Positions 2,253 to 53,181 of a stretch of DNA of 64,000 nt are shown here, in pieces. The notes under the pieces were generated by a model. It was not told where the DNA came from. It was given only the letters and a program-made list of their open reading frames with translations, and ran no database searches. The stretch covers positions 146,209,036-146,273,035 of the forward strand of contig NC_085842.1 of NCBI RefSeq assembly GCF_035594765.1, given 5' to 3'. This DNA is from Anolis carolinensis (lineage: Eukaryota). How positions within the stretch are numbered: the stretch's first letter is position 1; each line of letters begins with the position of its first letter. The translations under genes and the position numbers were made by a program.

Positions 2253-2295
<43 letters not shown>

Positions 2296-26024: not shown

Positions 26025-26591
26025 ATGGATGCACGTTTTACCCGTGGAAAGTCTGCTATCCTTGAGCGGTCACTAACTCGACCCAAGACAGACATCAGCC
26101 TCAGTGCCTTTTCACTGCTGTTTTCTGAGATTGTGCAGTACTGCCAGAACAGGGTCTACTCTGTTTCAGAGCTGCAGAACAAACTTTCTGAACTGGGTCA
26201 GCAGGTGGGAGCCCGTATCTTGGATGTGCTTGTGATGCGGGAGAAGAATGGCAAGAGGGAGACCAAAGTCATTAACATACTGCTCTTCATCAAGGTGACT
26301 GTGTGGAAGGCTCTTTTTGGGAAGGAGGCTGACAAGCTGGAACAAGCCAATGATGACGATAAGACCTACTACATCATCGAGAAGGAGCCTCTCATCAACA
26401 CTTACATCTCAGTTCCCAAGGAGAATAGCACTCTGAACTGTGCCTCCTTCACAGCTGGCATTGTGGAGGCCATGCTGACTTGCAGTGGCTTCCCTGCCAA
26501 AGTCACAGCCCATTGGCACAAGGGCACCACCCTCATGATCAAATTTGATGAGTCAGTTATTGCCCGAGACAAAGCTCTGGATGGCCGCTGA
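26025..26591 (+). CDS. TRAPPC5: Trafficking protein particle complex subunit 5 (188 aa, single coding exon)
   Basis: MDARFTRGKSAILERSLTRPKTDISLSAFSLLFSEIVQYCQNRVYSVSELQ...FPAKVTAHWHKGTTLMIKFDESVIARDKALDGR; Kozak CACCATGG just after the splice acceptor at 26020. Confidence 0.98.
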   Translation: MDARFTRGKSAILERSLTRPKTDISLSAFSLLFSEIVQYCQNRVYSVSELQNKLSELGQQVGARILDVLVMREKNGKRETKVINILLFIKVTVWKALFGKEADKLEQANDDDKTYYIIEKEPLINTYISVPKENSTLNCASFTAGIVEAMLTCSGFPAKVTAHWHKGTTLMIKFDESVIARDKALDGR

Positions 26592-29455: not shown

Positions 29456-30881
29456 ATATGACTTGGGGTGCATCTACATTGTAGAATTAATGCAGTTTAT
29501 CACTACTTAGGCTCCTTCCACACTGCCCTATATCCCAGTATCTGATTCCAGATTATCATATTAGCCCAGATTATTTGGCAGTGGAGACTCATATAATCCC
29601 GTATAAAGCAGATAATCTTGGATCAGATCCTGGGATATAGGACAGTGTAGAAGGGACCTTAATTGTTAAGTCTTGATGCTATGTAATCCTGGGATTTATA
29701 ACTTGGTAAGACACCAGCATACTTTGGCAGAGGAGGCTAAATACCTTGTAAAACTACAAGTCCAATGGTTCCATAGCATTGAGGTGAAAGTGATGTCAAA
29801 CTGCATTAATTCTACAGTGTAAATGCATCTTCTCCAAAAGAAAGAATGGTGTGCTGAAGACAAGTGCTTAGTTATGAAGTGTTCCCAGACAAAAGAAAAA
29901 GAACAAGTTGAGGCAGTGAGGGAAGCAGGAAGGCTCTATGGACAAGTGATCTATCTGCTTGTACATTATTTCTTTTGCTTTTGGTTGGGGGATAGTTGTG
30001 TGAGGGTTTTTGATATGTGTAAAACATGCCATACATCAACACAAGGGTGCATAAGCACACATGGTTTTCTGGGAAACCAGTCCAAAAAATTGCTAAGGTG
30101 CAAATCTAGAGATTCTTCTTTAGGATGGTGTAGTTAAATACATTGTTTTTCCCACTGCCTTGCTGAATGTTTACACTCCCAACATCTTATGTCTCCATTC
30201 TTAATCTAAATTTTCTACTCTAGCCTACTTCTGTTCCTAAACTCATTTGGCATCTGAAACTTGAGTGTATCCCACATATCCCTCTGACTGTTCAATGACG
30301 TTTTGATAGGACAGGTAGAGATACAGGTAAAGATAAAACAAGTTGAGCTTACTCAGAGGTGACTGGGCAGAGAACTTAGCTCCTAGTTACCTCCTATTAG
30401 GTTGAAACTAACTCAAAATGCTTGGGGGTTCATCAGAACAATAAGCCAATTGCAAGATGGTGGCTTTCTCAGAATTTGCGATGGCACAAACTGGCCTTTT
30501 AGTGCAACTGGGCATTTCCACAAGCAAGCTCCATTGAACCCTAAGATCAAACTGCATGTGAGAAATATCCAACAGAAAATTGAAAAATCAAAAATGTTAA
30601 TGTTTTGATATGTGTGTCTGACATTCGTGTTAGTTACCAGTAAAAATTGTTCTTGTGTTTCCAACTGTGGTGGCTGTATTGCTACAGCTCAAACCAATAC
30701 TGGCTCCCTATTACTTAGGAACAAATTGAAGGAGCTGCAGTCTCCCATGTCTTTTACATACTAAACGAAACTAACTTCTGTGCTTTATCAGATAGAAAGG
30801 AAACTGATTATGATAGGAAACCCAGGCATCGGACCCCATCCTTCCCAAGAACGGCTACTACTGATATAGCCTCATACCGCC

Positions 30882-33800
30882 ATGGATGATGCCTACCAGA
30901 ATGAAGATTACCATAACAGCAGCATTTTAGCAAAATTGTCTCAGACTCAAGAAGTGCAGTCTGGACCCGAACATGCAAGAATAGTTGATGGGGAAGACGA
31001 GGAGACATTCTCAAAGGGCCGCTCTAGTTCTAGGCATGTTGATGCCAAAGACAGAAAAAGAACTTACTTAGGTAAGTGTTCTGGCCAGATGGGAAGTCTT
31101 ATGCCTAACTCGACCCCCCATAAGTTCAAATCCAAGAGTAATGCAGGCTTCATATTTTTTTATTACATTCTCCCCACATTCATACAGACATAAGGCTGGT
31201 CTTTAAAATGTATGCACTTTAAGGGTTCAAGTTGGGGGGTGAGACTTAAATGGAAAACTATGCATAACTTAAAGTACCTTAATAGAAATTATTCAAAATG
31301 GTTCTTATTTTAGTTGCCTTTTTATTAATTTTTATTTCATTTTATTGGATATTTACTCTAATGTTCTCCCAGATAGGATTTGGGGACCTCTGTCTTATTT
31401 GGGGGTACATTATAGCAAAGGGGGTGACAACCTATACAATCAACAAGTATCAGTTCTGTTTACATAACATTTGCACCTTCAGTGTTGCATGTCATGTGTA
31501 TATCAAGTGGTAACAATGCTAATTAACTAAATTTTACTTCCAGGTTGTTACTCAACAAAAATAAAGTTGATATCTCTACAAAGTATATAGATAGCCAACT
31601 AATTATCAGCAGACAAGTGAATGCATCCCAGGACTAGCCAACTAATAATCGCCCACTATTGTATTAGTACTTTTACAGCTTCTTGAAAAGAAGTGTACAG
31701 CAGAATCAAAATTGCTTCCTGGCAATTGTTTCACGTCCTGTGTTGTTTCATGAATGGAAAGTTCATAAATAGGAAAGAATTTGACAGCTTCTAAGTACAA
31801 TGAGCCCTTGGTATCTCCTGGGGTTTGGTTCTAGGAACCTGTATGGATACAAAAATCCATGGATGTTTAAGTCCTGTTATATACATTGTCTTAGTAAAAT
31901 AATATTCTTTATATATAGTGGCCAAATGAAGGCTTGCTTTTTTTTTTTTTTAATTCCAAGCTATGGATGATTGAATCTGTGGATGCAAAATCTGTGAATA
32001 TGGAGGGCCAACTGTAAATTATTAGAAGATCTTCCTGTGCATGTGTGTGTCATACATATTCTAGATGCAGATTTAATAGTTTTCTTATGTGAACATGCTT
32101 TCTTTGGTGTAGAAATAGCACAATATGTGAAGTGATGTGAACTGTGGTGGGAGAATCCAGTTCTGACACGTTGGGAAGTTTATTAACCTTTCTCTGGATC
32201 AAGGCTTTCCAACTGGAGGGTCACTGACTGGCAGCCCCAGAGAACAAACGATCCCATAGAAATGACATTTCTGTCCCTAGATTCAGTGACTTCAAGCCAA
32301 GTTTATGAGAACGCTTCTGAACTGGAATATGGGTCCTTCTCATTTTCGGGCCTGCGGATGAGGAAGCTGATGGAAGATGGAGTGAAAACTGAGTCATGTG
32401 AAAAATTTACTGCACCTCTACAAATGATATTTGTTATGTCTAAAATGCTTTGGAAAGCAAGTGGGTTCTTCTAAAACAGTATGTCATATAAGAAACTGAC
32501 ATTGTAGGATAGTCCAACAATAAATCATTAAAATTATTCAGGGAATCATGTGGATCATTTGATGGCTATATGTTTTGGTTTCGTGCAGACAGCGATAATC
32601 TTTAGTGTATGTCATCTGTTCGTCATCACCACTTTATAAACTAAATAGAATCTGGGCAAAGCTGCAAAGCATATGACAGGTAAGAAGGCTCTCGTAGTAC
32701 AGAGTGGTGACATGATATACATTGTTTAAAATAAACCATTATTTATAAATTACAAGATTTTGTATAGACACTAAGAAAGTTCAAACAAACAAGGAAACAA
32801 ATGAAAATATAAGTCCAGAAGCATATTAGGGCACCATGCTGTCTTTAAATAGTTGTGGAAGCAGTGGTATTTTCTCAGAGGTTCTGAGGCTATGGTCCCC
32901 AATGCAGCCAATAATTTCACAAGATCACATACAGCTCCACTCTTTGACTAGCCAGATGAGAAGTGAACTAACTGATTGTTGTCCAATGGAGTAATGGCCT
33001 AAGTTTTGCTTTGGTTTTTGGGATGTGCAGGGGTCAGAATATTTGAGCCTTGAATCACATGGCTTAATAAAAGGAAGGGCAATTCTGTGACACCTACATA
33101 TTTTCAAGTCGTACATTTTATGTCCCCACTCTTTAATTGACAGTGTGGTATTTCTGTCAATAGCAAAGCACAAAACAAACTTTTCTCCTTAGCACCCACC
33201 TCATTTAACTAAAGGTGAGTTTACCTCCTAGAGAGTAAGAAAACTGGGCAAAATAAGTAAGTAAGTAAAACTTTATTTCTATCCCGCCCTATTTCTCCAT
33301 GGGGACTCAGGGTGGTTCACAACATAAAAGGCAAAAATACAATACCGTATTGTAGAACAATAGACTAAAACGATTCAAAATAAACATAACTAAGCATTCA
33401 ACAATAAAGCAAATCATATGAAAACAACAATAATAAATTACACAATGTTAATAAAACAAAGTTAAAAGCCATGTCTGAATTCCATTCTGAGGAATTTGCA
33501 ACAGTTGTAATTATGTTTTGCATTGAATAAAAAATGTCTTTGAGAGCCAATCACCATTGGAAGGAGCAATATTAATAAAGATTTTTTCTTGATTTTGTCT
33601 TCTGCATATGCTCTGGAATTAATTTCTCTTTGTACTTTAAGACTTCAGGATATTGATCGCTCAAGTCTAAATCAATCATACAATCCAAAAGAATCTGGGA
33701 GTCATGGTGGTTGTGCTTTCCTCAAACTACACTTTCTTACCCTTAGTGGTGGAGGAAGCGCCCCACTTTGGGAGTAATATAAGCGGTGCCTGCCCTACAT

Positions 33801-36800
33801 GCAACAAAAAGGCAAAACAGGGCAAAAATGCCCCATGTGAATAGGTGGTGAGTTGCAGTAGCATTAAAGACAGCCAACGGCAAAACAGTGAGCAGTAGAC
33901 ATTAGAAGCTTCAGCCTGGATTTCTAGAGTTTCTGCTTAGGGATAGGCAACACCAAAACATGTTTGTTATTGGGTTTTTTACCAGATTTTTTACTGCCCT
34001 TCTAGACAGTCGCTATATCCAGGATCTGATCCCAAGTTTTCTGTTTATCTGGTAGTGTGGACCCATATAATTCAGGTTAGAGTAGAAAACCTGGGATCAG
34101 ATCCTGGCATATGGGGCCTGTCTGTAAAGGCCCTAAGAGAGCAGCATGTTTTCTCCTAAGGATGTAGAATACCTCAGGATGTCAGATTCTGTATTTCAAA
34201 TTATCTGTACACAGATATGTCTTTTTATCCATATAGGAACATTAGAAAGATAAAATCTGACATCCTGAAGGTAGTACATTTTTTAAAAAGTCCAGCTGCA
34301 TTACTACAAAGGCAATGCTTACTTCATTTGGTCAGTGGAACCCTAGAGGCAATTAGTTATCTTTCATTTGTCCTTAACCTATAACATGTATATGGGTGAC
34401 TGGAACTTACTGCCCCAGTAATCCATGACCAACCAAGGGTTTCCTCTCTTGCTCATACAGATAAATGTGTAATTTATTAGCCTTCTAGAATTCTCTGTGA
34501 ATTTGCAGTGTAAAATCTCAGACCTTCCTGTGACTTCCAGAATTATTCTTATTAACAGCACCAGTTTTATTCCTGGATGAAATGGAGGGAAGAGCCTTTG
34601 GCAAGAGACACTTCATCATCTTCTGTGTCACTCTGTTTTGCTCCCTGATATTGGTGATAACAGCTCTTCTGATGGCAAGCTTGCGGTGTAAGTCCAGTTC
34701 CCAAGCTCAAACCTTCCTGGACACTATTTCTATGTATTTGAAAGCATGAGCTAAGGCTGTTCTTAATCCCCATCCCCACTCCTCCATTCCCTCACTCGCA
34801 TTCACAACTGATGCCAGATAGGTGGAGTATCCCTCATCTAGAATGCTTGGGACCAGAAGTGTTTTGGATTTTTCTGAATTTTGAAATACCTGTATTTACA
34901 TATATCTACATAATGAGGTTTCTTGGAGATGGAATCCAAGTCTAGACATAAAATATGTTGATGTAGCATACACACTTTATGCACATAGTATGATAGTGAT
35001 TTAATCCAATAGTTTAAATAACTATGTTAATGAAACAGTTTGTGTACATTGAACCATTAGAAAGTAAAGGCTTCATTATCCCATGTACCCATGTAGACAA
35101 TTTTGGATTTTGAGGCATTTGGGGTTTTGTAATCTGGATAAGTGATGCTGAACTTATATTAATGTAGCAATGAGGTTCTGTAACAAAATAAAATGGGCAA
35201 ATTGTGAAGAAATCAGATGACAAAAGGATATCAATTGCATTCACTGACATGGCTGTAAATGGACTGCTTTCAGTTCAGTCACCTTACAGGGTGGTTTTAT
35301 ACAGCCACTTAAACCGAGTTAGGAAGTGAATTAAAAGGAACCAGTTTCACTGTGAAGCGCCTGCTCAATCATCCCAAGAACCTGAGATGGTGTCCACAAA
35401 TATTCAATGATTGTGGATTGATCCAAACCCAGGAATGATTTTTTACCTAGTCCTCCGGAATACATTGATATGCATTGCCATGATCATTGGGGATCAGCAC
35501 TAGACCAAGGCATAGGGGAGAGAAAAGGGCAGAAAGCGAGAGTTACCATGGAAGCTAAATGGTTTCTTTTCTGCAGGTGTTTACCTTCCAGTCAGCTATA
35601 TTTCTGGGTTTGTAAAATGTGTCAGTACTGGCTCTACTTTAATGGGGCTCCACATTTTTAAAACTCAGATTTGAGCTCTGTGTGGGACATACACCGATTG
35701 GCTTCAGTGGATTTTGTGGCCTGTTCTAGAATTTGCAGTGGGTTTTTAATACTCTGTTTCTGGCTTGATGCATGCTGCAGTGCACATTATACAGGCATTA
35801 TAGTGCCTGTATAGAAGCACTGACAGAAAATTGGAGAAAACGAAATGTGTATTTTCCCTTCTTTTGAACCATGTACAAAGAAAGATGGGAGGGTAAAGAG
35901 GACTTGAAGATAGGCAGAAAGGAAATTGACTACTTAGTTGGTCTTCTATTTCCCCAGTTGTTTCTTATGCTCCTTTTTCCATGGAGGAGGCAGAAATGCT
36001 TGTAACCCCATAGGATATCCCCCACCACCACTCTGTGCTGAATTGTGTAAGAATTAACTGAATATAAATGTGGAAATGCCCTCCTTTCCTTTAACATAGT
36101 GATCCATTTTCTGGACTTCCAGAAGGGAGTCAGGTGCTACAGACCTTTAGCATATCCCCAAAATCATTGTTTGAATTTGCTCTGAAATGAACCTGAATGA
36201 TACAGATGACTTTGGATGCCTATGTAGTTCTTGCTAGAAAAGGGAAAGCTGTTGTGTGAATATAATGCATAGTACAATATTCATAAGACCAAAGAGTCAT
36301 GTTTGTTCACCATTAGCTCCGTATTCATCAGTGGTGGTATCTAATGGCCAGGAGAAAATGTGCCGGGATGTTTAGGATATACTTTCTTTGGCCTGCCTTT
36401 TTTCAAGGATCAATTCATTGCAGGCATTCCCAAATGTCCATCTGGGTGGCAGAATGTCGGAAAGACTTGTTATCTCATCTGCTCAGAAGCAAAGAAATGG
36501 GAAGATGGCAGAGATGATTGCCAAAACCAAGGAGCAGATCTGATAATAATTGGAGATAAACAGGAACAGGTGAGCCTATTGTGTTCCAACTTGTATAAGA
36601 AATTGATATGCTGAGAACAGGGCACAGAAGGATGTCTGCACTTGCTGTTCTTGCACACAAACTCAAGAGTGAGTGAGACATCTGAGTAGATATAAAGCTA
36701 TCTTTTCATCAAAGCTTTATTACAATTGGATCCCAAAATGTTTGAAGATGTGTCATTTTGTATATTTTGGAGAATATGCTTGAATTGTGGCAATCTAATA

Positions 36801-37248
36801 TTACCTGCAGCAAACACAGCTAAATTTCATGTCACCAAAGTGTTAACATGTAAGCTTCGGGGTAACATCATACAGGACTTGGAAAGAAAGACAAGAGACA
36901 ACACCAATCCAATCAGAAACCTCTATGTGAGAAAATGTGAATGTTTCCATATCCTTTAAAGGTTTTTTTTTCCATGTCAGGAGTGACTTGAGAAACTGCA
37001 AGTCACTTCTGGTGTGAGAAAATTGGCTGTCTGCAAGGACGTTGCCCAGGGGGCAACCGGATGTTTGATGTTTCAACATCCTTGTGGTAGGCTTCTCTCA
37101 TGTCCCTGCATAGGGGGCTGGAGCTGACAGTGGAAGCTCACCCGCTCTTCCTGGATTCAAACTGCCAACTTGTCAGTCAGGAGTCCTGCCGGTACAAGGG
37201 TTTAACTCATTCCTCCACCAGGCGCCTTTAAAAGTGAGAGCTTATGTA

Positions 37249-37308
<60 letters not shown>

Positions 37309-40300
37309 AGAGCAAGAAAGGGAATTTGTTGGGACCGGTTTAAGGCTTGACAGTAGTGTCCCTTGCTTTGGGAAGTATGGCCAATGCTGGAAAAAGAAGC
37401 CCAGACTGAAGACACAGATTCCCAACAGCAACAAAACTGGAGACCCAGATTGCAAATACTAATAGCATCATGAGTAGAACAGGGGAAAGTCTAGCTTAAC
37501 CAGGCATGTCAGGACGTATGTTTCTTTTTATTCTTGGTTGAAGACAGCTTACTAAATTTGTAACTTTTCTTTTCACCCCGAAGGGCACTCAGGGCGGATC
37601 ACAATGTACATATACATGTCAAACATTCAATGCCATTAGACAGACATACATTAGACACACACAGACAAAGGCAGAGAGGTTATTTAACATTCCCAGCTTC
37701 TGGCTTCTTGAAGGTATGCTCGATTCCGGCCACAGGAAGAGCTGCTGCTTCATCATCCACTGTGATGGTGAGTCCTTGATGGAGTACTTCCTCATTTTAT
37801 GGCATGCACACACGCTGTTGGACATTTTTATGGTGATGTAAATTAGTTAAATTAGCCTCCCCGCATAAGTGGTCCCTAAATTTCTTACTTGACAGATGTC
37901 TTTCGGGTTGCTTAGGTGAACAATGAGCTGGGGCTATTTAATGGCTATTTGATGGTCGGGCACTCAATCCGACTCGGGCTTCGAACTCATGGCCTCTTGA
38001 TCAGTAGTGATTTATTGCAGCTGGCTACTAACCAGCTGCGCCACAGCCCGGCCCCTGTGTGCCATTTGAAGCAGAACAAGGTAGGAAAATAACTGCTGGT
38101 TAGCAATATTTTTTATGATCATCCCTTTGTAGAAGGTATGTGCACCAGAGAAATCCTTCTGTCTAGTGAACTAATTCATGAGAAAGAAAGTTAGGCTAAA
38201 CCTCTCCTTGATGTTTCTGTATCCTGTTTCCAGGAGAAGGCAAGACAGCACTATCAAATCATTTTACCTAATTTTAAAAACGGTTCTTGTTTTATGCCTC
38301 CCCCCCCCTTCTTCCCATTTTTCCCTAGGACTTTCTAAATTATAAAATGGAGTCCTACCGAGAATTCTGGATTGGCTTAAAGCATGCTGGAGGCGAAACA
38401 TGGAAGTGGGTAAATGGGACAAGCATATTGTCCCAGTAAGTTCCATTCTTCCTTGGATATTACATTGCTTTTACCTGTGTATGTAAGAGAGAGAGTCTCA
38501 GGCATAGGCTTGAGAACTCCATGTAAAATAAAAATTTAATAAAACAAATAGCATTATTGATTGTAAGAAGTAACAAATGTACGAATGCTATCCTTGTTTC
38601 AGAAGGTCAGTGCCTGGATGATGTAGATAACAGAAATTATTTCTTTGGCAGTGTTGGAAGTCAACCTCACACTGCTCAAGTCTGCAGTCCTCATTAGGTA
38701 CAATTAGTTAACATTAGGCTAGGCTATGGAGTAAGAGAGAAGCTTAGACCCAATTCTTTTCCATCAAGAAATATAGTTCTTATATTTTAAATAAACTTTT
38801 TTGAAATTTTAAAGATTGAACTTTGCATCTTTGCCTCATAAGCTCAAGAATTCTTTCACAGCCACAACACTTCACCTTCTGCTTGCTGTGAGCTGACTGC
38901 TCAGTTATGTATCCTGTTCATATTTTTGGATGTTCTGCTATTTTTAGGAGAATTCCCTAACAGGCAGGGCTCCTGATATTTAGAGATGGAAGGCTTCATA
39001 GGTGGCAGGAAAGAAGGGGTCTTTGGAAAACAGCCCTATGCAATATAAGAGTCTAAATAACAATTGCCAAAGATCAAGTGGTCAAAAGTATACTGTAATG
39101 ACAAACCATTTGTGCATTCATGCCTGTGCTAGATGGATGGATGGATAGACAGATTTTAAGAACAGACACACATATCAGGAAACAGAATTACAAGTTGATT
39201 TTTCTTTATCTGAAATGCTTGAAGTGAGCTGTGTTTTGAATTTTTTCAAATACTTGCATATTATGGCATCTGAGCCCTTGCAATTATAGCTGTCCAGAGA
39301 AGCTGAAGAAACTGAAGGAAAATGGCTAAAATGGATCTGTGCAAAGGTCTATCCAGTACTGCCTTCCAGAGTGTCATAGCAATGGAGAATATGCCATTTT
39401 TTCTGCACAGCCAGTGCTCATGTTTTCATGTTCCATGCAGAAAATACACACAGTATCAGTAAGAGGACATTTTGAAGTTGATCTGCGGTGTGAAAGTAGC
39501 ACCACACTTTGTCAAATGCAGGTTTATTGCTTCACAGTCAACATACTCAAGCATAAGAGCCACCTTTACAGTGTTCAGTGCTGTTCACTCTTATGAAACT
39601 TTGTTGTACAAAGCTGCAATCACACAATTATCAATAGGGGTACATGCCAGCAGGAGCATCCTTATTATTTCACATCTCTACTTGTGGAATAGCACTGATT
39701 TGCCAAGCCCTGTCCCATGATTGTACTTCTGTGTACTTTTGTAACCCTATCTCCCTGCACTCCCTGCTCTTGATTTTTTAAATTATTATTTTAACGATTT
39801 TACAGTTCCAGCAATGTTTAATTTTAAAAGTGCCAAATATTGCTATCTTTAAAAAAATTTGTAAATGGCTTGGTAATACTAATGGAACGTGGGATGAGTA
39901 GGAGTGAGGAGGGGCAGAATCTTGCCACTGACATCACGTTGCTGCTGGAACAGAAGTGGAATGGTCCCACTGTACAAGATAGGAGATGAGAACAGGGTGG
40001 AATTGGCAGCTATCAGTTAATAGAGGGAAGGAGGCGGACCAGCAGTAAGATGCACACAGTACCCTGTGATAGGAACCATTGCCAAATGCCACTTTGCTTC
40101 CCTCATGTGATTAAGTCCTACAGTATAGTGGTACGTTAAGGACACTTCAAGTGGTATAAGCCAAACCCTCCTTATTTTAACACCAATATGTGAATATTTT
40201 GTGCTATTTCTTCTTTAACTGGCCCCAACTGCTGCTGCATATTTGGGGAAAATGGATTCCCAGACATAACTTTTTCTCCTAACTTCTAGATCTGTCCCAT

Positions 40301-40532
40301 ATGTCAAATCCCCAATTAGTATGCGGCTCACACTAAGTGCTGATTCTTTTTCAGAAGCCTGAGAACATTGGAAGGATTTGAAGATATAGGTGATGGCCCT
40401 TGTGTTACATCAAAGAAAGAAGAAAATAATCACAAATGGAGCCGCATTGACTGCACAAAGATGCATCCATATGTTTGTGAAAAGTATATGTATGTTAATT
40501 GTGTCCTGCAGTCCCCATTAGGATACTTCTGA
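30882..40532 (+). CDS. Type II transmembrane C-type lectin-like receptor B (about 288 aa)
   Basis: Exons 30882-31071 (MDDAYQNEDYHNSS...), 32281-32397 (VYENASELEY; donor uncertain), 34559-34687 (TM HFIIFCVTLFCSLILVITALLMASLR), 36424-36569 (IPKCPSGWQNVGKTCY...GADLIII), 38329-38435 (EFWIGLKHAGGETWKWVNGT), 40355-40532 (PCVT...WSRIDCTKMHPYVCEK...CVLQSPLGYF*). Phases 1,1,1,0,2 are consistent. Confidence 0.85.
36965..37225 (-). mobile_element. tRNA-derived SINE
   Basis: Close to the copy at 62962-63241; B-box-like head and TGACTTGAGAAACTGCAA tail region. Confidence 0.7.
37248..37307. repeat. (GAAA)n microsatellite
   Basis: Direct reading. Confidence 0.95.
37565..38054 (-). mobile_element. Sauria-type SINE
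   Basis: Minus-strand head GGGGCCGGGCTGTGGCGCAG with GAGTTCGAAGCCC B-box and tail GATCCGCCCTGAGTGCCCTTCGGGGTGA; related pieces at about 42340-42590, 59330-59530 and 62350-62578. Confidence 0.75.
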
Positions 40533-43500
40533 GATTACTTTATTTGGGTGTCTGGATGTGTAAAAATAACAGATTTTGGAAATGAAATTGTTTTTTACTC
40601 GTTTGTATTTCAGTTCTTTCAGCTCTAGGGTCATTACCTGCAGATGGATGTGTTTTGGGAAAACATGAAAGGGATCAAGGAGTGGCTATTTAAATACAGT
40701 CGACCCTCCACACACACTGGGATTAGGGTCATAGCACTCCTGTTAAAGTGGCATATTGAATTGATGATCTTATTGATTATCTCTTCCCCCTTTCCACTTT
40801 TTCTCTTCCATCTCTCTCCATCCTCAAACCTTCCAAAATAATGAGGAGAGATAAGAATGGTCACCTATTTTTCCCTCTATCTTTATGGGTATGGACAGTC
40901 TCCCCACCCCACCACCACACACACATACACAGAGACTCTAGATCCAACAATACAGGACAGTGAAGCAAACAAAAGACTGACAAATCAAGTAATATTGGTT
41001 TCCCCATTAGTAGGAATAAAAAAGAGTGGGGAAGAAGCAAGGAAACACCAAACTTCCTGTAAATATCGATCAGTCTTCTAGAGTTTGAAAAACAATGTTT
41101 TAATTACAGGAATAAAAACAATGATCTCTCCATATATCTGGCTAGCACAAATAAACTCTGTAGCATGCAGCACTTGCCACTGACAAATGTTTAGAAACTT
41201 CAGGTAGATCTAAATGATGGAGCCATAACTAGTTATATGAGGCATGTGTCTGTATCACAGCCTCGCTAACCACTGTCCATTTCCAGATACAGTTTAAAGT
41301 GCTGCTTAGTTGGATGGAACAATAGTAGGAGAACTGAGAAAGCCCTAATGACACAAACCACCTTCCTATCCTTCCTGCTGCTATGTTGTGGGATGCTGGT
41401 CATGAAGTTGAAGGGGCAAAGATGTAAAAGATGTAAAAATACTCCTCTTAATTCAAAGTCAAAGGCAGGAGGCCCCTTTTCTGTGGAGAGGGCGAGGAAG
41501 GACACCACAAAAGTTGGATCTTCAAACTGCAAAAAAACCTATTTATTGCGAGCTTAGCAATAACAACAAAAACATGCATACATCGATGCAATAAAAGGAT
41601 TTGTTGCACTTTCAAAATGGTTGCAAGGGTTTTTATCATTCTACAGAAAATAGTAAGCATATCCTTATAGGCTTTCAAAGATAATTTACCCCATTCATCT
41701 AATGTTGGCTACATCACAAACATCTTAACCATCATGCAATTCCATTGGTTTTCTATGCTGTAACAACATGTGACTCTTTAGACAATGGTGCTTTTCATGT
41801 TATTGACCCTGATGTCAACACCAGCTTATCTTCCTCTTGTTGCAAGTATAGGTTCGAATCCATATGGGAATCCTAGGGAGTAGTGGTTAACTGGTTCTGA
41901 CTTGCTGTATTGTTATTATTGAAAGTAACTTCTTTTTCTCTGGAACAACTCTTTTTCCAAACATCAGCATTTTCTTTCAAACATAGGCTTTTCTCAAGCA
42001 TAGGTCTTTGCAACTTAGGTCAATCAAAGCATATGGGACTTATAGTCATTGGAAGTATCTTTGTCTTTTTAAACCCACGTCCCCCTCAAAGTGATTTATA
42101 GTTTCCAAATCATGACCTCCCTGAACCACCGTAAGCTGGATAGAAAGTATCCCAGAAGCAAGCAAAAATACAGCAGAGGCCTTTCACAGAAAAATATGTG
42201 CTTCAGGCCATTTATCAGCAGAGTCCAACTACCAGGATATGCCGATCCTCTTTACTTGTTCTAGTAAACAATCAGAATCACCAGATAGTAGTCACCAGAT
42301 AGTAATCATCGAAAAGGACATTAATTGGAGGAAGCTTCTTGGCATGGAAGATGGAGCGACAAGACCCCCCCCCCCCCCCAATGGCCGGAGTTGAGCACGA
42401 CCTCCAAGATGCCAGAAATAAGATTGGGGGGGGGGGGGGATAGCCTTCACCTTTGTTGTGTTGTCTGTCCTGGTTAATTGTATGATTGTATAATCGGCAT
42501 TGAATGTTTGTCATATGTGTGTTCTATGAGCCACTCTGAGTCCCCTTCGGAGTGAGAAGAGCAAGGAATAAAAACTGTAAATAAATAATAGTCGCATACT
42601 ACAGTCACATAGGGAAAAAAATATGGATTCTTTCATCCTCCTTATATAGCCACCTGCTAATAGGTCATCAGTAAGGGACACTGGCTGATGTAACACCTTT
42701 GCAATAATTTTTACATGGTTATGACTCATTCCCTTCGGTATTACATCTTGACACTCACAGTCATTTATACTCAGGTGCTATAAATATTCCATATGTTCAT
42801 CAAACAGTATTTTCTCCAAGACTAGAAATGCTATGTCATTTTTATCTAACATGCCATTATACAGGTACCACTGTAGCTACTATGCAAGGTATTTTGTCAG
42901 GCTGGTTACAAGGGAATGTGAGCTAGTAAGGCCATCTGTCTTCCAGGACCTCTGTTCTGAGAATTACTTGGGTATCAAGTCAATAAAAGACACACACAGA
43001 GAGACTAGGGATGCATCTATACCAGTGGTTCTCAGCCTGTGGGTCCCCAGATATTTTGGCCTTCAACTCCCAGAAATCCCAGCCAGTTTACCAGCTGTTA
43101 GGATTTCTGGAAGTTGAAGGCCTAAACACCTGGGGGCCCACACGTTAAGAACCACTGATCTATACTATTGAATTAACGCAAGTTGAAAACCACTTTAACT
43201 ACCACAGCTTAATGCAGTGGAATCATGAGAGTTGTAGTTTACAAGATCTTTAGCCTTCTCTGCCAAAGAGTGCTGAAATATACTACACCAAATTATAACT
43301 GCCAGGATTACATACCATTGACCATGGCAGTTAAAGTGATGTCAAGCTGCATTACTCCACTGCAACAGTGGTTCTCAGCCAGGGATCCCCAGATGTTTTT
43401 GGCCTACAGTTCCCAGAAATTCCAGCCAGTTTACCAGTTGTTAGGATTTCTAACAAGGCCACAACATCTGGAGACTCCCAGGTTGAGAACCACTGATGTT

Positions 43501-44095
43501 GATGCACCCAGGGTCTGACAGATCTCTCCTATGCTCTTCTGAAGGTATATTTCCTCAGGACTAAGACTTTGTGGATAAGGACTGTGAGATAATCTCATTC
43601 TATCATCAATGTTTTCATTTCTGCTTCCACATTTTCATTTCTGCTTCCAGTGCCCAAGGAGTGCCCCTTGGCTATTTTTGTGGCACTGGTCATATGGCAG
43701 CACAGTCAGAGAAAAAACTGCTTTCATTTAAAATTTGCAATGCACCACTACAGAGGCAAAACCATATTCAAAGGTTCTTCTTTAAAATAAGATGTGTGCT
43801 TTGTTTTAATCTAGCAAATCCAGAAGTCTTTAACTGGCTTCAAAATAGGTGATGTATTTCATATAGACCTTGCTTTAAAATGAAACTCCATGTTCTAAAG
43901 AATGAGGGACTTTTGGTGTTGTTGTTGTGATCATGATTATCACATTGAATTCCTGAGGCAGATGTTAGGATCTATCTCTTGGTAGTTTGGGTGTGTTTGC
44001 TATTAACCTCCCAGATCCCAGAAAGCTTTGCATTTATCACAGTGTTTTTTTAATTCAATCATCAGCTGAGAGGTATTTTCGTAAGTACTGCAATC

Positions 44096-44125
44096 ACAGC
44101 AGGAAGAAAACAGATGTGGTTATTT
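44096..44125 (+). promoter_or_regulatory. Candidate regulatory element of lectin C (ETS plus E-box/RUNX)
   Basis: AGGAAG 44101-44106 and overlapping CAGATG/TGTGGTT 44111-44121. Confidence 0.3.
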
Positions 44126-44270
44126 CTTGCTCTTGATGAAAACCCCTCCTCCTCAGAAGAAATTCAGAGGAACACCCACCCAGGACAGTTCCATTGGGAG
44201 CAAACCTTTCCAATGATTTTGAACCCAGAAGCGTACCCAGAAGAACCTTTTCTGCTGAACAGCTACATAT

Positions 44271-44862
44271 CATAGAATCCTAGAATCCTAGAGTTGGAAC
44301 AGATCTCAAGGGCCATCCAGTCCAACCCCCTGTCAAGAAGCAGGAACATCGCATTCAAAGCACCCCCGACAGATGGCCATCCAGCCTCTACTTAAAAGCC
44401 CCCCAAAAAGGAGCCTCCACCACACTCTGGGGCAGACAGTTCCACTGCCGAACAGCTCTCAAGTTCCTCCTAATGTTCAGGTGGAATCTCCTTTCTTGTA
44501 TTTTGAATCCATTGTTTTGCATCCTAGTCTCCAGGGCAGCAGAAAACAAGCTTGCTCCCTCCTCCCGATGACTTCCCCTCACATCTTGATACATGGCCCT
44601 CATAATGTCTCCCCTCAGCCTTTTCTTCTGCAGGCTAAATATGACCAGCTCTTTAAGCCACTCGTCATACGGCTTGTTCTCCAGACCATTGATCATTTTA
44701 GTTGCTCTTCTCTGGACACATTTCAGCTTGTCGACATCTCCCTTAAATTGTGATGCCCAGAATTGGACACAGTATAATTCCAGGTGTGGTCTGACCAAGG
44801 CAGAATAGAGGGGTAGCATTACTTCCCTGGATCTAGACACTATACTCCTATTTATGCAGGCC
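44271..44862 (-). mobile_element. CR1 LINE 3' fragment
   Basis: CINRSIVSRSREVMLPLYSALVRPHLELYCVQFW...VQRRATKMI...LQKKRLRGD; (ATTCTAGG/ATTCTATG) tail. Confidence 0.9.
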
Positions 44863-45007
44863 ATCATATCAGATATGATGTGTGTGTGTGTCCCGTGGCT
44901 GGGTAGATAGAAAGGAAACTGATCATGATAGAGAGAGCCTAAGCATCCGGTCCCAGTGGGTAATATCTGCCCGAAGTATGATTTTTTCCACACAGCCTCC
45001 AACAGCT

Positions 45008-48000
45008 ATGGATGACAATGATCAGAATAAGGACTACCAGAATGAAGGCTACCGCAGTGAGGAATACCAGAATGACACTGCACCAGAGAAATCCTCTCAC
45101 GCCTGCGAAGTACATTCTGCATCAGAAAATGTGAAAAAAGGTAATAGGAGGAGGGGGAAGGGGAATGAGAAGAAACCCTGAGAGAGCTGCTTTAGTCCAG
45201 GTGCTGCACATTAGGTTCACATCAGAGGAAAGAAACATACTTTCTAAACTGAGGTTGGCCACGGCACCCACTAAGTCACATAGACTCAATTTTTCAACAA
45301 GATAAGAAATGCTTTAAGGTAATTTTGTAGATTTCCTGAAAAATTAGAAGATGTATGCAGTAGTGTCAGCATGGTCACATTAAGGTATAATTCTTATTTC
45401 TAAAATAGGAGTTATTGGCACAAATACTGTCAAGCTGTTTGTCCACTTTCTTTATTTGTTTAGCTCTTTGAATAAGAAATTCTATTTTAATTTAGCCTCT
45501 CAGAGGCCCCTTCCACACTCCCCCTATATTCCAGGATCTGATCCCAGATTATCTTATTCCCGTTTATTTGGCAGTGTAGACTCATATAATCCAGTTTAAA
45601 GCATATAATCTGGGATCTGATTCTGAAATATAGGGCAGTGTAGAAGAGGCCCTAGACACCATATCTGATTTTGGAAGCTAAAAGGGGTTAGCCCTAGTTA
45701 GTACTTGAATAGGAAACCTTCAGTGGCTTCCAGGTGCTATAATTCAGAGGAAGGAATTGGTAAAACCACATCCGAGGGCCCTTCCAGACAGGCCCTATAT
45801 CCCAGAATCTGATCCCAGGTTTTATTTTTTTGCTTTAAACTAGATTATATGAGTCCTCACTGCCAGATAATTTGGGATACACAGAAAACCTGGGATCAGA
45901 TCCTGGGATATAGAGCCTGTCTGGAAGATAATCTGGGATAAACAGAAAACCTGGGATCAGATCCTGGCATATAGGGCCTGTATAGAAAGGCCCTGAGGCC
46001 CCTTCCACACAGCTGAATAAAATCCCACATTATCTGCTTTGAATTGGAATATACGGCAGTGTGGAATCAGATAACCTAGTTCAAAGCAGATATTGTAGGA
46101 TTTTCTGCCTCCATATTCTGGATTATATGGCTGTATGGAAGGGCCCTGAGTCTTCTTTGCCTAAGGCCCCTTCTACACTGCCATATAAAATCCAGATTAT
46201 CTGCTTTCAACTGGATTATATGGCAGTGTAGACTCATATAATCCAGTTCAACACAGATAATGTGGATTATCTGATTTGATAATCTGGATTATATGGCAGT
46301 GTAGAAGGGACCTACAGAAACCACATTATATTCATGGGATCATCATAGGTCAACAGGCAGCTTGAAGGTATTTATTATATATATACATTTTAAGACAGTA
46401 ATATTGCTGGGCATGCAGTTTTCCAGTGTTCAGAAGGACCACTCAACCTTGAGGCTCCGGAGCTGGCATCCTAATTAAATAGACAATCCCTCAGGAATGC
46501 TTTTTTTCTTTTCGTCTCTAGAATCTGTGACTTCAGAACAGGGCTGGAAGAATGCTTCAGAACAGGAATATGAATATATCCCATTGTCAGGCATGTGGAC
46601 GAGGTCACTGCCAGAAGAGGAATTAAATGCTGATCCAGGTGAAAGATTCGGTACAATTCCACAAATGGTGTCAGGGATATATTTGTGTTGGATCTTTCTA
46701 GAGCAACCCAATATGTTGCCTGAGGCAGAAAATAAATAGCACCGATTATCCTCTGCTAAGGAGGTTCAACTCTATTTAAAGTTTTGATGTAGAATTGGTA
46801 CACCCTTTTTAATGTCTTTTATGCCTTCTATCTTACATATTGACATGTGAAGCAGGTTGCTCCAGTTGTAACCTGGTTGATATTCCAGTTTCAAATGTGT
46901 ATGGAAGAAAATATGTAATTGTCTATGTAATTGTTATCAGCATTGTCACTCTTCCTAAAGTTCTATGGTGTGTATACATCCAAAATGTGTATGGTTCAAA
47001 GGAGAAAGTATAAGCAGAAATGGAGAAAAGCACTTGACACTTGCCTTGTAGAAGTCTAGTCAGACTTAAGAATACCCTTTCCCAAGTGATTATTTCATTT
47101 GTACTTTACTCCCCACCTCAAAAAAAAAAAATGAATAGGTTGCCTACTTAGGTTGCTGTGCAAGAGTCAACTGTTGGCACTCAGCTTGTACTCCCTCCCA
47201 TGGCTTTATGTCTTATAATGACTGGACTCAGACTGCACAGACTTTTAAACAAAGTCTGTCATCTGCCATCCTTTCAAATGAATCTTCATAGGGAGATATG
47301 GATATTTAGATAGAGTCCCAACATGACTATTCCAAACTCATGGAAGTTGTTTTTCTTTCTTTTTCTTGAAGGGCTGTATATATTTGAGAATGACAAATTG
47401 AATTCCATCCCAAGGAAACTCTTCATCGTCTTCTGCATTGTGCTGCTCTCTTCTCTAGTAATGACAACAGTCGCTCTTGTGATGACATGCTTTAGATGTA
47501 AGTGAACATCTGAAGCACAATCCTTTTTTCTGGACACCACTTCTATTCCATTTATCTTCCTCTTTCCAATTTATAGTTTGGCCTTATTGATTGCATACAA
47601 TGGTAGGGTATAAACACAATACATTGCTCAATAAATTACATATTTTATTATTTGGCTTGTAGGCTTCCCTTGAAACATTATCATTGAAATGAATTTTTAA
47701 ACAAAACTGTTAGTGAATTAAGGTTGTGAGTGATAAAAAATGTAGGGCCACAGTGTTGGTCGAGGAATGATCTTGGTCTGTCTCCTGTGTTAATGATTCT
47801 TAGGTGACAATACTGCACAAACTTTGGGTAAGTCAACACAATCTCTGGGTATTGTGTGTCCTTGGGATGGATGTCTAACTGTGATGCTGTTATCTGACTC
47901 CAGGTGCATAACCATCAGTAAACCCCTTAGGATGTGTTCTGTTCGTGCAGAGTAGCACTTTTTCAAGTCTCCCTGATTTCCAGGCAAGCCAGTTTGTTCA

Positions 48001-48869
48001 GATGGCTGGGACAAATTCCAAGAGAAATGCTACTATTTCACAGAAGAACAGAATCCATGGCAGAAAAGCAGAGAAATGTGCCAAAGCAAAGGTGCTGATC
48101 TCATAGTGATTGATCATAAAGAGAAACAGGTGGGTGTTTCCTATTTCTTCTTATATAGAAAATAGGAAAAGTTGAGAATGTAGCAGAATGGGACACCTCT
48201 TTCCATACTGGGAGAAAAGCAAAATATTCAATATGTTCACTCATTTTGCATCAAAAGGAGTATAGTATCTAGGTCAAAGAAAGTCACGGTGCCTCTCTGT
48301 TCAGTTTTGGTTAGACCTCACCTGGAATACAATTCTGGGCACCACCATTCAAAAGAGATATTGACAAGCTGGAAGGTGTCCAGAGGAGGGCGACTAAAAT
48401 TATCAAAAGTTTAGAGACCATGCCCTATGAGGAGTGTCTTAAAGATCTGGACATGTTTAGCATGCAGAAGAGAAGGTTCAGAGGAGACATGATAGGCATG
48501 TATAAATATGTGAAATGATGTCATAAGGAAGAGGAATCAGGCTTGTTTTCTGCTGCCTTGGAAAGTAGGAGCAATGGGTTCAAATTACAGAAAAGGAGAT
48601 TCCACCTGAATATTAGGAAGAGCTTCCTGACCATACGAGCTATTCAACTGTGGAACTCTCTGCCTCGGAGTGTGGTGGGAGCTCCTTCCTTGGAAACGTT
48701 TAAACAGAGGCTGGATTGCCATCTGTTAGGGATGCTTTGTGCTTTTCCTGCATGGCACAGGGTTGCATTAGATGGCCCATGTGGCCTCCTCCAACTCTAT
48801 TATTCTATGATTCACTGGTGGACCATTATTCTTACAGATACCATCAGCTCTGAGTATTCAGAAAAGATC

Positions 48870-48904
<35 letters not shown>

Positions 48905-51900
48905 CAACAACAACAACAACAACAACACTTTGTTTATATCCCGCCCCCTCTCCCCAAGGGACAGCTTAAAACAAGAGGAAACAATGTACATAATATCAGT
49001 CACACAATCCAAAAAAAGGTCAAATCAAAACAAACAAATCAAGAAAGACAAACAACAATACAAACATAGAAGAAAAATAAATCCCAATAAACATATTAAT
49101 TATAACTCATAAACATTACCATATAAATATAAAAACTTTACAACAATTAAGACATATAGTACCACTAAAAACATCACAACACATGCTTTTGTTAGTAAAT
49201 ATCAATAAATTAAAATTATTCCCATTAAATACTGCAATCTCTTTGTTTACAATTAGCCATAAAGGTTCTTTGAGTGGGGGGGGGGGGGAGTCTAAGCTCC
49301 TTGGGGAGGGCATTTCATCAATACACATGTAATTGATCTTGCAAATTACAACTTCTGTTTTGTAATAATTTCTATTGTCTATTGTATCTTTTTCTTTTAA
49401 TAGTTCCTGAATACGGCCATAAAATTTCCAGGCCGAAACACTGTTTTCAAGAATAAAATACAGTGGGCCCTTGGTATCTGCCAGAATTTAGTTCTCCCCA
49501 TCCCCACCTATCCATTGATTTGTTTGAAATTACTTGTACTACTTTATTCATATATCACTCTGAGATATTTATCTATCGATCTATCATTGATTGATCAATC
49601 TAGCTATCTATCATCTATCTCTCTGTTAAAAGTGAAAATATGTACATGTGTATGTAATTTCCAAGATGGCTACTACATCCAGAGAGCCCTGTGACTCCCA
49701 CCAACAACAGATCTAGATTAAACTTGACACCTCCATGACCCACTAAAAATACTGGAGAGATTTTGGAGGATAACCGGAGTTGCAGTTCACTCACACCCTG
49801 AGACCACAGTGAAGCCCACCAACGATGAATTCGGGTCAAACTTGGCACCCGTACCCCCACCCCTATCAATTTTAAGTACTTGGAGAGTCTGGGGAGCAAT
49901 GAAAAATCATGATGGGAGCTGCAGATCTTCCACATCCAGAGAGCTCTGTGTACCTAACCGATGATGGAACTGGATCAAACGTAGCACCCATACAACTCAT
50001 GCCCAACTTTAAGTACTGATAGGGTTTGGGGGGAGGGCAATGATAGAGGATGATGTGAGTTATAGTTAATCCATACACAAAGTGTACTTGAACCCCGCCG
50101 ACAATGGATCTGGACCAAACTTGACACACATACCCACCATGGCCAGTTTTAAGTGCTGGTGAGGTTTGTGGGGCAAAGACAGAGGGGGATAGGAGTTATA
50201 GTTCATTTATATATGAAGTGCACAGTGAACCCCACCAAAAATGCATCTGGACCAAAATTGTCACACATACCCACTATGACTAACTTTAAGGACTGGCAGG
50301 GTTTGGTGGGCAGTGGCAGAGGACAATAAAAGTTGTAATTCACCCACATCCAGAGAACACTGTGAAGCCCACCAACCATGGATCTGGACCAAATGTGGCC
50401 CACATACATATCACGACCAGTACTGGCAGAGTTAGGAGCAATGACAGATGATGATGGTAATTGTAGTTTACCCATATCCTGATGCATATTCTAATTGAAC
50501 CATTCATAAAATCCAAAAATAAACAATGACTATTTCTAATAAATAGCATTACAAAAGACCTAACTCGGGCATCACTGGACACCTAAACAAGTATCATAAT
50601 GAAGGGTAGAATATAAACATTATACATACATGCATAGAAATTGTAATCTTTTAATACCAACATAGGACATGGTGTAAAGTGCAATTTTGTATTCTTAAAT
50701 AGAAGTGAGAAAAATATTGTTGTGGGCAACCCCACAGGTCTATTGTGTAATCTCCCAAAGCCACCATTTTGGCCCACAAATACCCCCAGCATATTCTGCT
50801 AGTCTGTAAGCTATTCACTGCAAGTCCTTGGAGAGTTTGCAGAATGCAGGAAACAGTTGTAGGCAACAGTTATAGCCAACAAGCACAATCATGGTACTGG
50901 TCCCTGGAACTAGCGCCACCTTTCTGCCTGTCATATGGAGTGGAACAATTTTAAAAAGTTACAAGGGCAACAACATTTAGCCAATATGACAAAAAAAAGA
51001 AATATATTGATATCAATAGATGTTATTAAAGAGCTTTTTCTGCATGCAATCAAAAGCGAACAGCTTCTTGCTGTTACTCCCTTTATGCTTCTTACTGTTA
51101 TTCTCTTTATGATGCAACCTAGTGTGATGCACAGCTGCCTTGTTCTCCTTGGGGACTTTTGGGCTAAGCCATGTTGTTTTTATTTTGTTTTAGGCCTTTC
51201 TGGAAAATAAAAATAAAAACAAAAAAAACATTTGGATTGGCTTAAAGTACCAAGTAGGTGAAAAAGTGTGGAAGTGGGTAGATGGGAAACCTCTTTCCAA
51301 TCTGTGAGTATCTTCAATATCTTTTCACAGCTAGGGCTGTAATACGATTATAAAGAAAAAAAGGATAAAAACTGTGACTTCCTGGCCCTTTTAATCGATA
51401 TAGATACACCTGATCTTACAAGCTGTATAAAACATTGAAATAAAAATCAGGACACACATAAGCTCTATGACAGTGAAGCTGAAAATAAAACTTTGGCTCT
51501 TTCTACATTGGTAAAAAACTGCAAATCAGGGCAGAAGTTGCTTCTGGGTGTCCAGACAATGTTTGCCCATAACCAGAGCTGGCCCTAGGTATTTTTCAAG
51601 TGTAGGCAAACAGAATTTTGGTGCCCCCCCCCCCAAACCAATCACTGAAAAATAAAAGCGTTGGATAAGCGAAAATGTTGGATAATAAGGAGGGATTAAG
51701 CAAAAGCCTATTAAACATCAAATTACATTAAGATTTTACAAATTAAGCACCAAAACATCATGTTTTACAATAAACCAATAGAAAAAGCAGTCTCGACTGC
51801 ACCCCCGTATGTTTTGCGCCCGAAGCAACCGCTTAATTCACCTCATTGTTGGACCGGCTCTGCCCATAACACAGGGTACACTGTGTTAACTAGTTTTATC

Positions 51901-53181
51901 CCTGCATTAGCCATAACTTTGGGATTGGTGTGATGAACTGGACTGATTCTAATTCAAAATAATCAGTCTGTCTACACAAGTCAGTGCTGCCATTCCCTTT
52001 TTTCTGTGCTTTGATTTGTTGCTGCAAAACTGGCCAATGGGGGCACTTCCAGACAGGCACCAAAATGCAGGGCCTGTTGGGCTTTTACTGGAGGTGTCCA
52101 AACGACGTCTCCAGTAAAGGCAACTTAATTTGGGAGAAACCCTGGTAAACCCTGCTTTGTCCCAGATTAATTTGATACCCCATTAGATCCAGGCCTTCCT
52201 GAAAGGACCGGGTCTAGTGGGGTATTGCACCTGTGGGGACTCACCCCGAGTACTCCCAGGCTTCAGTCCCCACAGCCATCTTGTATCTTTTGGGCTTCTG
52301 GATCCCAAAGGTGCAAGATGACACCCACCTCTCTCCCAAAGCCCCCCCCCCTCCAAGTCCTTAAAATGAAAAAAAGTTTACCAGGTCACCATTAAGCTGC
52401 TTTGACAGTCCTCCTCGCATGTAGAAATGATGTACCAGGACAGGAAGGGGGGCAAGGAGTAAAATTTAACTCAGTGCCCCGGGTGGTACTTGGTCATCTG
52501 AAGCTGAATAAGAGCAGGGAATTGGAAACAACATTAGCTTGAAAACACACCAGGAAAGGTTCATTTGGAAGAACTCCCTCAAACCGTATTTACATTGATC
52601 GTTTCAGTATACCTGCAAGTTTAAAACATTTTCCTAATTTTCTTTTTGACTTTTTGACTCTTCTAATGCATATGACCTCTGGTTACAGCTGTCATTATTG
52701 TCCAATTTCAATGACACTTTGAATTACATGTTTTCACCTGCATGCTCTATAAGCACACACTCTTGTTGTCATTGCTGCTGTTTTTTAATATTGTGGTCTG
52801 GTCTCGTCTGGTGTGGGAGGAGGACCATGGGGTAGTATGCAACCTAGTGACATCACTGGTTCTTTTTAAATGTTTTCGGCTTCACTTAACATAAGGTCTG
52901 TTATTTTGAAGCTGCATCCAAACCCAAACAAGCAGCTGCTCCTTCCTCAACAGAAATCCAACATGCTAAATTCCCTATTAGTTTGCCACTGACAGATCAT
53001 TCTCTTTCTTTTTAGAAAGTGGCGAACAGAACCCCCAGAAAATGAAAATGACTGCTTCACTACAGGTCAAAAAAATAATGTGTGGGCCAAATATCCCTGT
53101 GTAAATATCTATGCCTCACCCATTTGTGAAAAGAGCAGACATGTAGTCTGTGTACTACAATCCCCATTTTGGCCACAGTGA
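45008..53181 (+). CDS. Type II transmembrane C-type lectin-like receptor C (about 273 aa), paralog of B
   Basis: Exons 45008-45140 (MDDNDQNKDYQNEGYRSEEYQND...), 46522-46638 (EQEYEYIPL), 47372-47497 (TM LFIVFCIVLLSSLVMTTVALVMTCFR), 47804-47827 (24-nt stalk), 47984-48129 (VCSDGWDKFQEKCYYF...GADLIVI), 51194-51303 (IWIGLKYQVGEKVWKWVDG), 53016-53181 (NDCF...WAKYPC...ICEK...CVLQSPFWPQ*). The 117- and 146-nt exon sizes match gene B. Confidence 0.88.
45503..46312. mobile_element. Cluster of four palindromic Harbinger-like MITEs in lectin C intron 1
   Basis: Units at about 45503-45652, 45775-45993, 45997-46146 and 46164-46312 with GGCCC(C)TTC...GAAGGG(G)CC termini. Confidence 0.75.
48249..48813 (+). 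mobile_element. CR1 LINE 3' fragment
   Basis: NGFKLQKRRFHLNIRKSFLTIRAIQLWNSLPRSVVGAPSLETFKQRLD; TATTCTATGATTC tail. Confidence 0.9.
48870..48927. repeat. Compound (AAT)n(AAC)n microsatellite
   Basis: Direct reading. Confidence 0.95.
49620..50580. repeat. Degenerate tandem repeat of about 120-145 bp, probably TE-internal
   Basis: Recurring GGA(C/T)CAAA(C/T)TTG(G/A)CAC(A/C)CATAC and CACATCCAGAGA motifs, about six times. Confidence 0.55.
51574..51862. mobile_element. Non-autonomous hAT element carrying a Tc1/Tigger-like MITE fragment
   Basis: TIRs CAGAGCTGGCC / GGACCGGCTCTG; 8-bp TSD CCCATAAC (51566-51573, 51863-51870); interior about 51655-51790 matches 57765-57895. Confidence 0.8.

Follow-up and report, generated by a model that had tools for sequence, protein, structure and literature searches.

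We analysed a 64,000-nt stretch of the Anolis carolinensis genome (NCBI RefSeq assembly GCF_035594765.1, contig NC_085842.1, forward-strand positions 146,209,036 to 146,273,035; hereafter the window, whose coordinates are used throughout) that carries two tandem genes, B and C, each encoding a transmembrane protein with a CTLD (C-type lectin-like domain; Table 1). Assembled by coordinates, both genes are intact: all introns are GT-AG with matching phases, and both genes are laid out as two tail exons, one transmembrane exon and three CTLD exons. B without exon 2 equals RefSeq XP_008102429.2 letter for letter, and when one of its exons was used as query, the only protein matched was A. carolinensis XP_008102429. 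C shows one difference from XP_016846766.1 in its last 221 residues; XP_016846766/7 are older models of C that lack exon 1. Together with a Pfam Lectin_C match for B (E=1e-18), this bears out an earlier description of the stretch, made from its letters alone (the preliminary description), which had recognized two complete CTLD genes with WIGL and the core cysteines. The same description had placed them in the CD23/DC-SIGN locus. The anchor stands, with TRAPPC5 4.3 kb upstream of B, while FCER2, CLEC4G and CD209 themselves are absent from the window; the mammalian Trappc5 neighborhood is reported to include Mcemp1, Fcer2 and Clec4g (PMC4467842). A scan of the window for further family exons gave none at E<0.5, a WHD-containing minus-strand stretch near 22,050 included.

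Table 1. Positions of the genes, exons and upstream elements of the window
Feature	Position	Strand	Remarks
Gene B	30882-40531	+	Six exons, 288 aa with all six
B exon 1	30882..31071	+	Cytoplasmic tail, YQNE and YHNS; RefSeq match
B exon 2	32281..32397	+	Tail, YENA; weak donor; not in the RefSeq models, but in the A. sagrei and Sceloporus orthologs
B exon 3	34559..34687	+	Transmembrane helix, hydrophobic core uncharged
B exon 4	36424..36569	+	CTLD part 1, extra N-terminal cysteine
B exon 5	38329..38435	+	CTLD part 2, WIGL
B exon 6	40355..40531	+	CTLD part 3, no EPN/WND; C-terminal extension with cysteine
Gene C	45008-53181	+	Six exons, 265 aa
C exon 1	45008..45140	+	Tail, YQNE and YQND
C exon 2	46522..46638	+	Tail, YEYI/YIPL; WKN replaces the family's YEN; spliced to exon 3 in run X8
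C exon 3	47372..47497	+	Transmembrane helix
C exon 4	47984..48129	+	CTLD part 1
C exon 5	51194..51303	+	CTLD part 2, WIGL
C exon 6	53016..53181	+	CTLD part 3, without WND and with a degenerate loop (EPP); C-terminal cysteine; exon alone gives no Pfam match
18-nt element, probably conserved	30791..30808	+	Lies ~75-90 nt before the start codon of B; identical copy upstream of C
Second copy of 18-nt element	44906..44923	+	Before C
TRAPPC5 coding sequence	26025..26591	+	PF04051 E=3e-44; synteny anchor
Gene A, first four exons (9141-9159, 6641-6751, 4997-5122, 1463-1611)	1463..9159	-	P0168; rest lies beyond the window start

Both proteins have type II topology, with a single helix after the N-terminal tail (hydropathy 2.8-2.9 over 21 residues; helix 79-104 in the B model) and no charged residue in the transmembrane core. 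As had been described, neither has an EPN/QPD or WND motif: B retains one of the five calcium site-2 ligands and C, depending on how it is aligned, none or one. The near absence of a neck was also confirmed, with 8-9 residues between the transmembrane window and the first CTLD CxxxW, versus 40-147 in comparison proteins where measurable. The predicted structure of B (predicted local distance difference test score, pLDDT, 80-98 over most of the CTLD) was compared with known folds by VIA and supports a C-type lectin fold (Z 19; root-mean-square deviation, rmsd, 1.5-2.4). Eight ectodomain cysteines are found in most members of the lizard family described below, including an extra N-terminal/C-terminal pair. 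Such extra cysteines are disulfide-bonded in CD23 and DC-SIGN; the B model has strands at both positions, and the pair would form the corresponding disulfide. B has in addition a ninth, unpaired ectodomain cysteine, which A. sagrei lacks. In the lacertid paralog P0076 (P0153 and P0154 are listed alongside), unlike in B and C, a lysine lies within the transmembrane helix, and this protein might associate with an adaptor chain. The proteins had been called non-sugar-binding receptors for protein ligands. This claim is not established: what is excluded is a canonical site for Ca2+-dependent binding, and the fold ties with Dectin-1 and CLEC-2.

Through sequence searches and look-ups we found relatives of B and C in Paroedura, Hemicordylus, Podarcis, Lacerta, Zootoca, Varanus, Sceloporus and A. 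sagrei, that is, in geckos, a cordylid, lacertids (two paralogs), Varanus and iguanians; the gecko has two family genes with consecutive accessions on one contig. Common to the family are an N-terminal tail with YxN motifs and the lack of a neck. One gecko and one Varanus member keep EPN, the Asp that follows WIGL and four of the five site-2 ligands. Both were recovered, the Varanus protein at E=4e-18 and the gecko one at E=3e-6, by a profile of the tails alone from which they had been left out; it gave no fish protein below E=0.6. No family member from a snake, bird, turtle, crocodile or mammal, nor any other from outside lizards, was among 50 matches of 3517 candidates or the best 150 of 7910, the second list being crowded by multi-domain proteins; with searches of limited sensitivity, this is weak evidence. 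The family had been proposed as a squamate one; it is lizard-wide, but with no snake member in these searches we call it a lizard family on present evidence. As a lizard-wide receptor family with neckless, calcium-site-deficient CTLDs and a conserved YxN tail it stands, and we found no description of it in the literature, our coverage of which was incomplete. Automatic names (snaclec-, lectoxin-, CD69-, ASGR-like) are misleading here, and the annotation of reptile immune receptors is poor. The venom-lectin reading that the RefSeq names imply was rejected because the proteins have a transmembrane helix and a tail.

The tails differ in part from their first description. YQNE and YHNS of B were found as described, whereas YENA lies in exon 2, which both RefSeq versions skip. 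The donor of this exon is the only one of ten in B and C that lacks both G at -1 and G at +5, although by a crude consensus count alone it ties with two other donors; the A. sagrei and Sceloporus orthologs contain the exon, with a G at -1 deduced from the junction codon. The YENA exon of B is probably skipped. For C, YQNE and YQND hold, but YEYI is not a YxN and WKNA occupies the position of the family's YEN. B and C therefore likely have two YxN motifs each. The YxN count of B exceeds chance with exon 2 in or out (shuffle P<0.001). Within the family, at least one YxN is present in the tail of 15/15 rows and at least two in 13/15, isoforms and near-orthologs included, whereas among other type II CTLD matches with a clear transmembrane helix the corresponding values are 10/20 and 1/20. 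Because it is conserved across the family, we consider the motif credible.

The preliminary description saw no clear immunoreceptor tyrosine-based inhibitory motif (ITIM), and indeed a canonical one occurs in 0/19 family rows, those of gene A included; B and C also lack the activating counterpart (ITAM). Because there is no ITAM, ITIM or adaptor-binding transmembrane charge, we take the YxN set as the signalling feature. Phosphorylated YxN (pYxN) binds the SH2 domain of GRB2. The YxN of MCEMP1 is reported to bind GRB2 (PMC10090139), and YxN in the tail of prolectin likewise (PMC2709368). Immunoglobulin tail tyrosines (ITT) are linked to GRB2 via a YxN motif; among them, an Anolis IgY tail, which contains a YxN-core motif, is reported to have enhanced Ca2+ signals as part of a chimeric receptor (PMC4263166). 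From the motif and these published receptors, coupling of B and C to GRB2 is a sound expectation.

B and C are, by sequence, old tandem paralogues: they are identical at 92/251 aligned residues (37%), with a proportion of synonymous differences (pS) of 0.59, a synonymous divergence (dS) of ~1.2 and a nonsynonymous divergence (dN) of ~0.5, and this identity and dS argue for an old duplication. A recent duplication was rejected, given that identity and the separate Sceloporus ortholog of B (support 100/100). The last exon had been singled out as strongly divergent between the two genes. We did not find this: identity is 16/51 (31%) in the last exon and 34/85 (40%) in the two remaining CTLD exons (Fisher p=0.36), and the transmembrane exon has an even smaller value (12/42); the same test in ortholog-type pairs gave p>0.2 in 5/5. 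Values of dN/dS per exon were uninformative for the B-C pair, with synonymous sites near saturation.

The upstream regions of B and C have a longest shared word of 19 nt, against a maximum of 13 in 300 shuffles. The 18-nt element within them is probably conserved across lizards, because in Lacerta a gene model (P0170) runs across it as well. It presumably resembles an interferon-stimulated response element (ISRE) or ETS-IRF site, or else marks the start of a 5' exon. In B, an in-frame upstream open reading frame (30810-30869) has its stop just before the start codon; in the A. sagrei model a sense codon replaces this stop, giving a 24-residue N-terminal extension. The upstream frame of C is much shorter.

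Reads of four runs were compared with positions 37400-48800, a range that covers B exons 5-6 and C exons 1-4. Run X8 yielded a 343-nt contig that has C exon 2 spliced to exon 3 and extends 50 nt into intron 3. This contig probably spans C exons 1-3, because the depth of 0.47 in the exon-1 bin is the value expected from its remaining 46 letters. A second X8 contig begins at the acceptor of the last exon of B, with 28 letters unplaced, and suggests that B is expressed; for C the evidence of expression is thin but positive, in one contig. Substitutions at 40397 and 40405, in the last exon of B, occur in two runs, and one matches a difference between RefSeq versions of the A. carolinensis protein, which differ at three residues (P0001 versus P0002); these differences are allelic variation. 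The neck intron of C contains a candidate 24-nt in-frame mini-exon with a strong donor (47804-47827), absent from RefSeq models and contigs.

We now turn to the origin of the family, for which CTLD groups II and V are weighed (for PDB entries, groups are assigned as we presume them to be). Among single-domain PDB entries, the Varanus member matches CD23 best (99 bits), then Mincle (97) and DC-SIGNR (91), with LLT1 at 62. Group II domains also head the ranking of the family profile, in whose best 60 group V appears only as a two-domain NKG2D construct. The long loop measures 21-28 residues, versus 24-25 in fish EPN lectins, and a Podarcis model leaned to group II. Since EPN survives in two members, of which that from Varanus has its highest scores with CD23, Mincle and DC-SIGN, we propose that the family probably derives from group II stock of the CD23/DC-SIGN type and that its sugar site was probably lost secondarily.

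Working from sequence anatomy, we infer all the steps by which such receptors would act. They would be expressed on the surface of leukocytes and clustered by a multivalent cell-surface ligand, probably a protein; clustering by ligand would be needed because there is no coiled-coil neck. A Src-family kinase would phosphorylate the tail tyrosines, which lie in an acidic context, and pYxN would dock the SH2 domains of GRB2-family proteins, leading to SOS/RAS-ERK signalling or BTK-type Ca2+ amplification. The output would strengthen the signal of a partner receptor and would not act as a trigger by itself, in the manner of ITT-like motifs and of MCEMP1 with KIT. We regard this co-stimulatory scheme, from ligand clustering through Src-family phosphorylation and GRB2 recruitment to amplification of a partner's signal, as moderately probable.

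Several observations weigh against this reading. Taken alone, B and C are ambiguous between the groups: B scores 67 bits with Mincle versus 64 with NKR-P1B, and neither ranks CD23 first. The B model fits CD69 and LLT1 (rmsd ~2) as well as DCIR, and Dectin-1, DC-SIGNR, NKp80 and CLEC-2 are tied on it at Z ~19, so the predicted fold does not separate groups II and V. In a CTLD-only tree, pruned of near-duplicates, of several fish sequences and of multi-domain rows of invertebrate type, the deep nodes are open and the EPN-keeping members stand apart from B and C; a single clade of these members with B and C is not rejected (approximately unbiased test, p-AU 0.12). All trees were built without mammalian CD23/CD209 references, and group V is represented in this one by two long-branch domains of one protein, which we assume to belong to that group. 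The linkage to TRAPPC5 is seen in this window only, and gene orientations in the mammalian neighborhood, as we take them to be, differ from those of the window, which weakens positional orthology. As to the tails, the YEN of exon 2 seems lost from both A. carolinensis genes, and the two YxN of C, among six tyrosines, are within chance when C is taken alone (shuffle P=0.096). YxN also occurs in the tail of 9/18 fish CD209-like matches with a clear transmembrane helix (P0178-P0200); being frequent there, it may be a generic trait, and tails of the GRB2 type may go back to the ancestor of the group II lectins. Finally, the evidence of expression is one low-depth contig from a run only guessed to be RNA, and X7, X12 and X4, the other three of the four runs, yielded repeats and unspliced pieces, with no exon junction among the rows listed.

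The tied folds bear on two other explanations. The tied top matches include Dectin-1 (Z 19.1, rmsd 1.5, 119 aligned) and CLEC-2 (Z 18.8), and B and C could accordingly be Ca2+-independent pattern-recognition receptors in the style of Dectin-1, CLEC-2 or LOX-1, binding glucans, lipids or glycopeptides and signalling through the same tails. In C, YIPL comes after an acidic stretch, an arrangement that we take to be loosely hemITAM-like; the YxxL is not conserved, however, with F at its position in most relatives, and a tie between folds does not show function. We hold this explanation to be unlikely. The overlay on CD69 and LLT1, the short stalk, the missing calcium site and the automatic names CD69-like and KLRG1-like would fit group V receptors or ligands of the natural killer (NK) complex type (CLEC2/KLR) that had moved beside TRAPPC5. 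Yet the tail is common to EPN-keeping relatives, the profile favours group II, the long loop has group II length, and most members have no spare neck cysteine for a disulfide dimer, all of which makes such an origin improbable.

Two further explanations start from the neighbors of TRAPPC5. The locus and the best match of the Varanus member would suit counterparts of CD23, acting as low-affinity IgY Fc receptors on lizard leukocytes; CD23 is reported to bind IgE without sugars, and human CD23 to have lost sugar binding (PMC6791321). The long signalling tail is nevertheless unlike CD23, and B and C prefer other matches. There is also no coiled-coil stalk, on which CD23-type avidity presumably depends, and we give this explanation the least credence of all. 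Slightly better placed, though still very improbable, is a mode in which the CTLD binds a partner in cis, for example a receptor tyrosine kinase, and the chief contribution of the protein is its GRB2 sites. MCEMP1, a neighbor of TRAPPC5 (PMC4467842), is described as acting thus with KIT via YENI (PMC10090139), and a neckless geometry keeps the domain near the membrane. No MCEMP1 homology was detected, in what was a weak test, and downstream of phosphorylation this mode largely overlaps with the co-stimulatory scheme that we favour.

On the other side of TRAPPC5 from B and C lies gene A, a more distant neckless CTLD gene with six cysteines, named KLRG1-like in RefSeq. It has a single YENV, in exon 2, that is conserved in A. 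sagrei, Sceloporus and Phrynosoma; this motif resembles the YENI of MCEMP1. An Atlas search with gene A residues 1-90, a weak test, returned no MCEMP1 cluster (best match 0.83, a lead only). In the interval from gene A to TRAPPC5, two copies of one stretch lie ~5.9 kb apart (~12270-12480 and 18140-18280), on either side of a GC-rich block; they are possibly the terminal repeats of a mobile element. A wider and doubtful proposal is that a second, convergently NK-complex-like cluster arose in lizards at TRAPPC5 from CD23/DC-SIGN stock: a GRB2-tailed EPN lectin would have shed neck and sugar site and given rise to a range of co-stimulatory receptors for protein ligands, with gecko and monitor intermediates still alive and mammalian MCEMP1 as a lectin-less relic of the gene A lineage. 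If this is true, the CTLDs point to the ancestral extracellular partner of the MCEMP1 signalling module. If the reading that we favour holds, the family would offer a graded natural series, from EPN-bearing to site-less, of a sugar-binding lectin turning NK-receptor-like; it is also a candidate co-stimulatory system of lizards and may explain how MCEMP1 originated.

Among known systems, CD23/FCER2, CD209/DC-SIGN and CLEC4G share with B and C the neighborhood of TRAPPC5, type II topology, a three-exon CTLD and the extra cysteine pair, and it is in this group that the EPN-bearing relatives score best. B and C differ from them in having no neck, no calcium or sugar ligands and a long multi-tyrosine tail, and no one-to-one orthology is shown. 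CLEC17A (prolectin) is likewise a type II CTLD protein with a long tail of repeated tyrosine motifs, and is reported to co-purify with GRB2 (PMC2709368); unlike B and C, it possesses a neck as well as SH3-binding motifs, its binding of mannose and fucose involves Ca2+, and its position is ~7 Mb away from the DC-SIGN cluster. MCEMP1 resembles the locus in its place beside TRAPPC5 and its YENI-GRB2-SOS signalling, to which the single YENV of gene A is similar, but has one site and presumably no CTLD. Group V proteins (CD69, LLT1, NKR-P1, NKp80, Dectin-1, CLEC-2) also combine a short stalk and no calcium site with a nearly identical predicted fold; B and C, however, have no ITIM, hemITAM or charged transmembrane residue, carry a loop of group II length and lie at another locus, and the resemblance is likely convergent. 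The cichlid cKLR form a multigene cluster of type II CTLD proteins without calcium or sugar residues and with unstable placement between groups II and V, as described in the cited work (PMC514892), but they are fish-specific and no shared tail is shown. B and C thus stand outside both the Ca2+-dependent group II lectins, having neither site nor neck, and the typical group V receptors, having no such signalling motif, although they partly resemble either group. No principle is overturned by them: they are a new mix of known parts, with a precedent for each feature in CLEC17A, MCEMP1, cichlid cKLR and human CD23.

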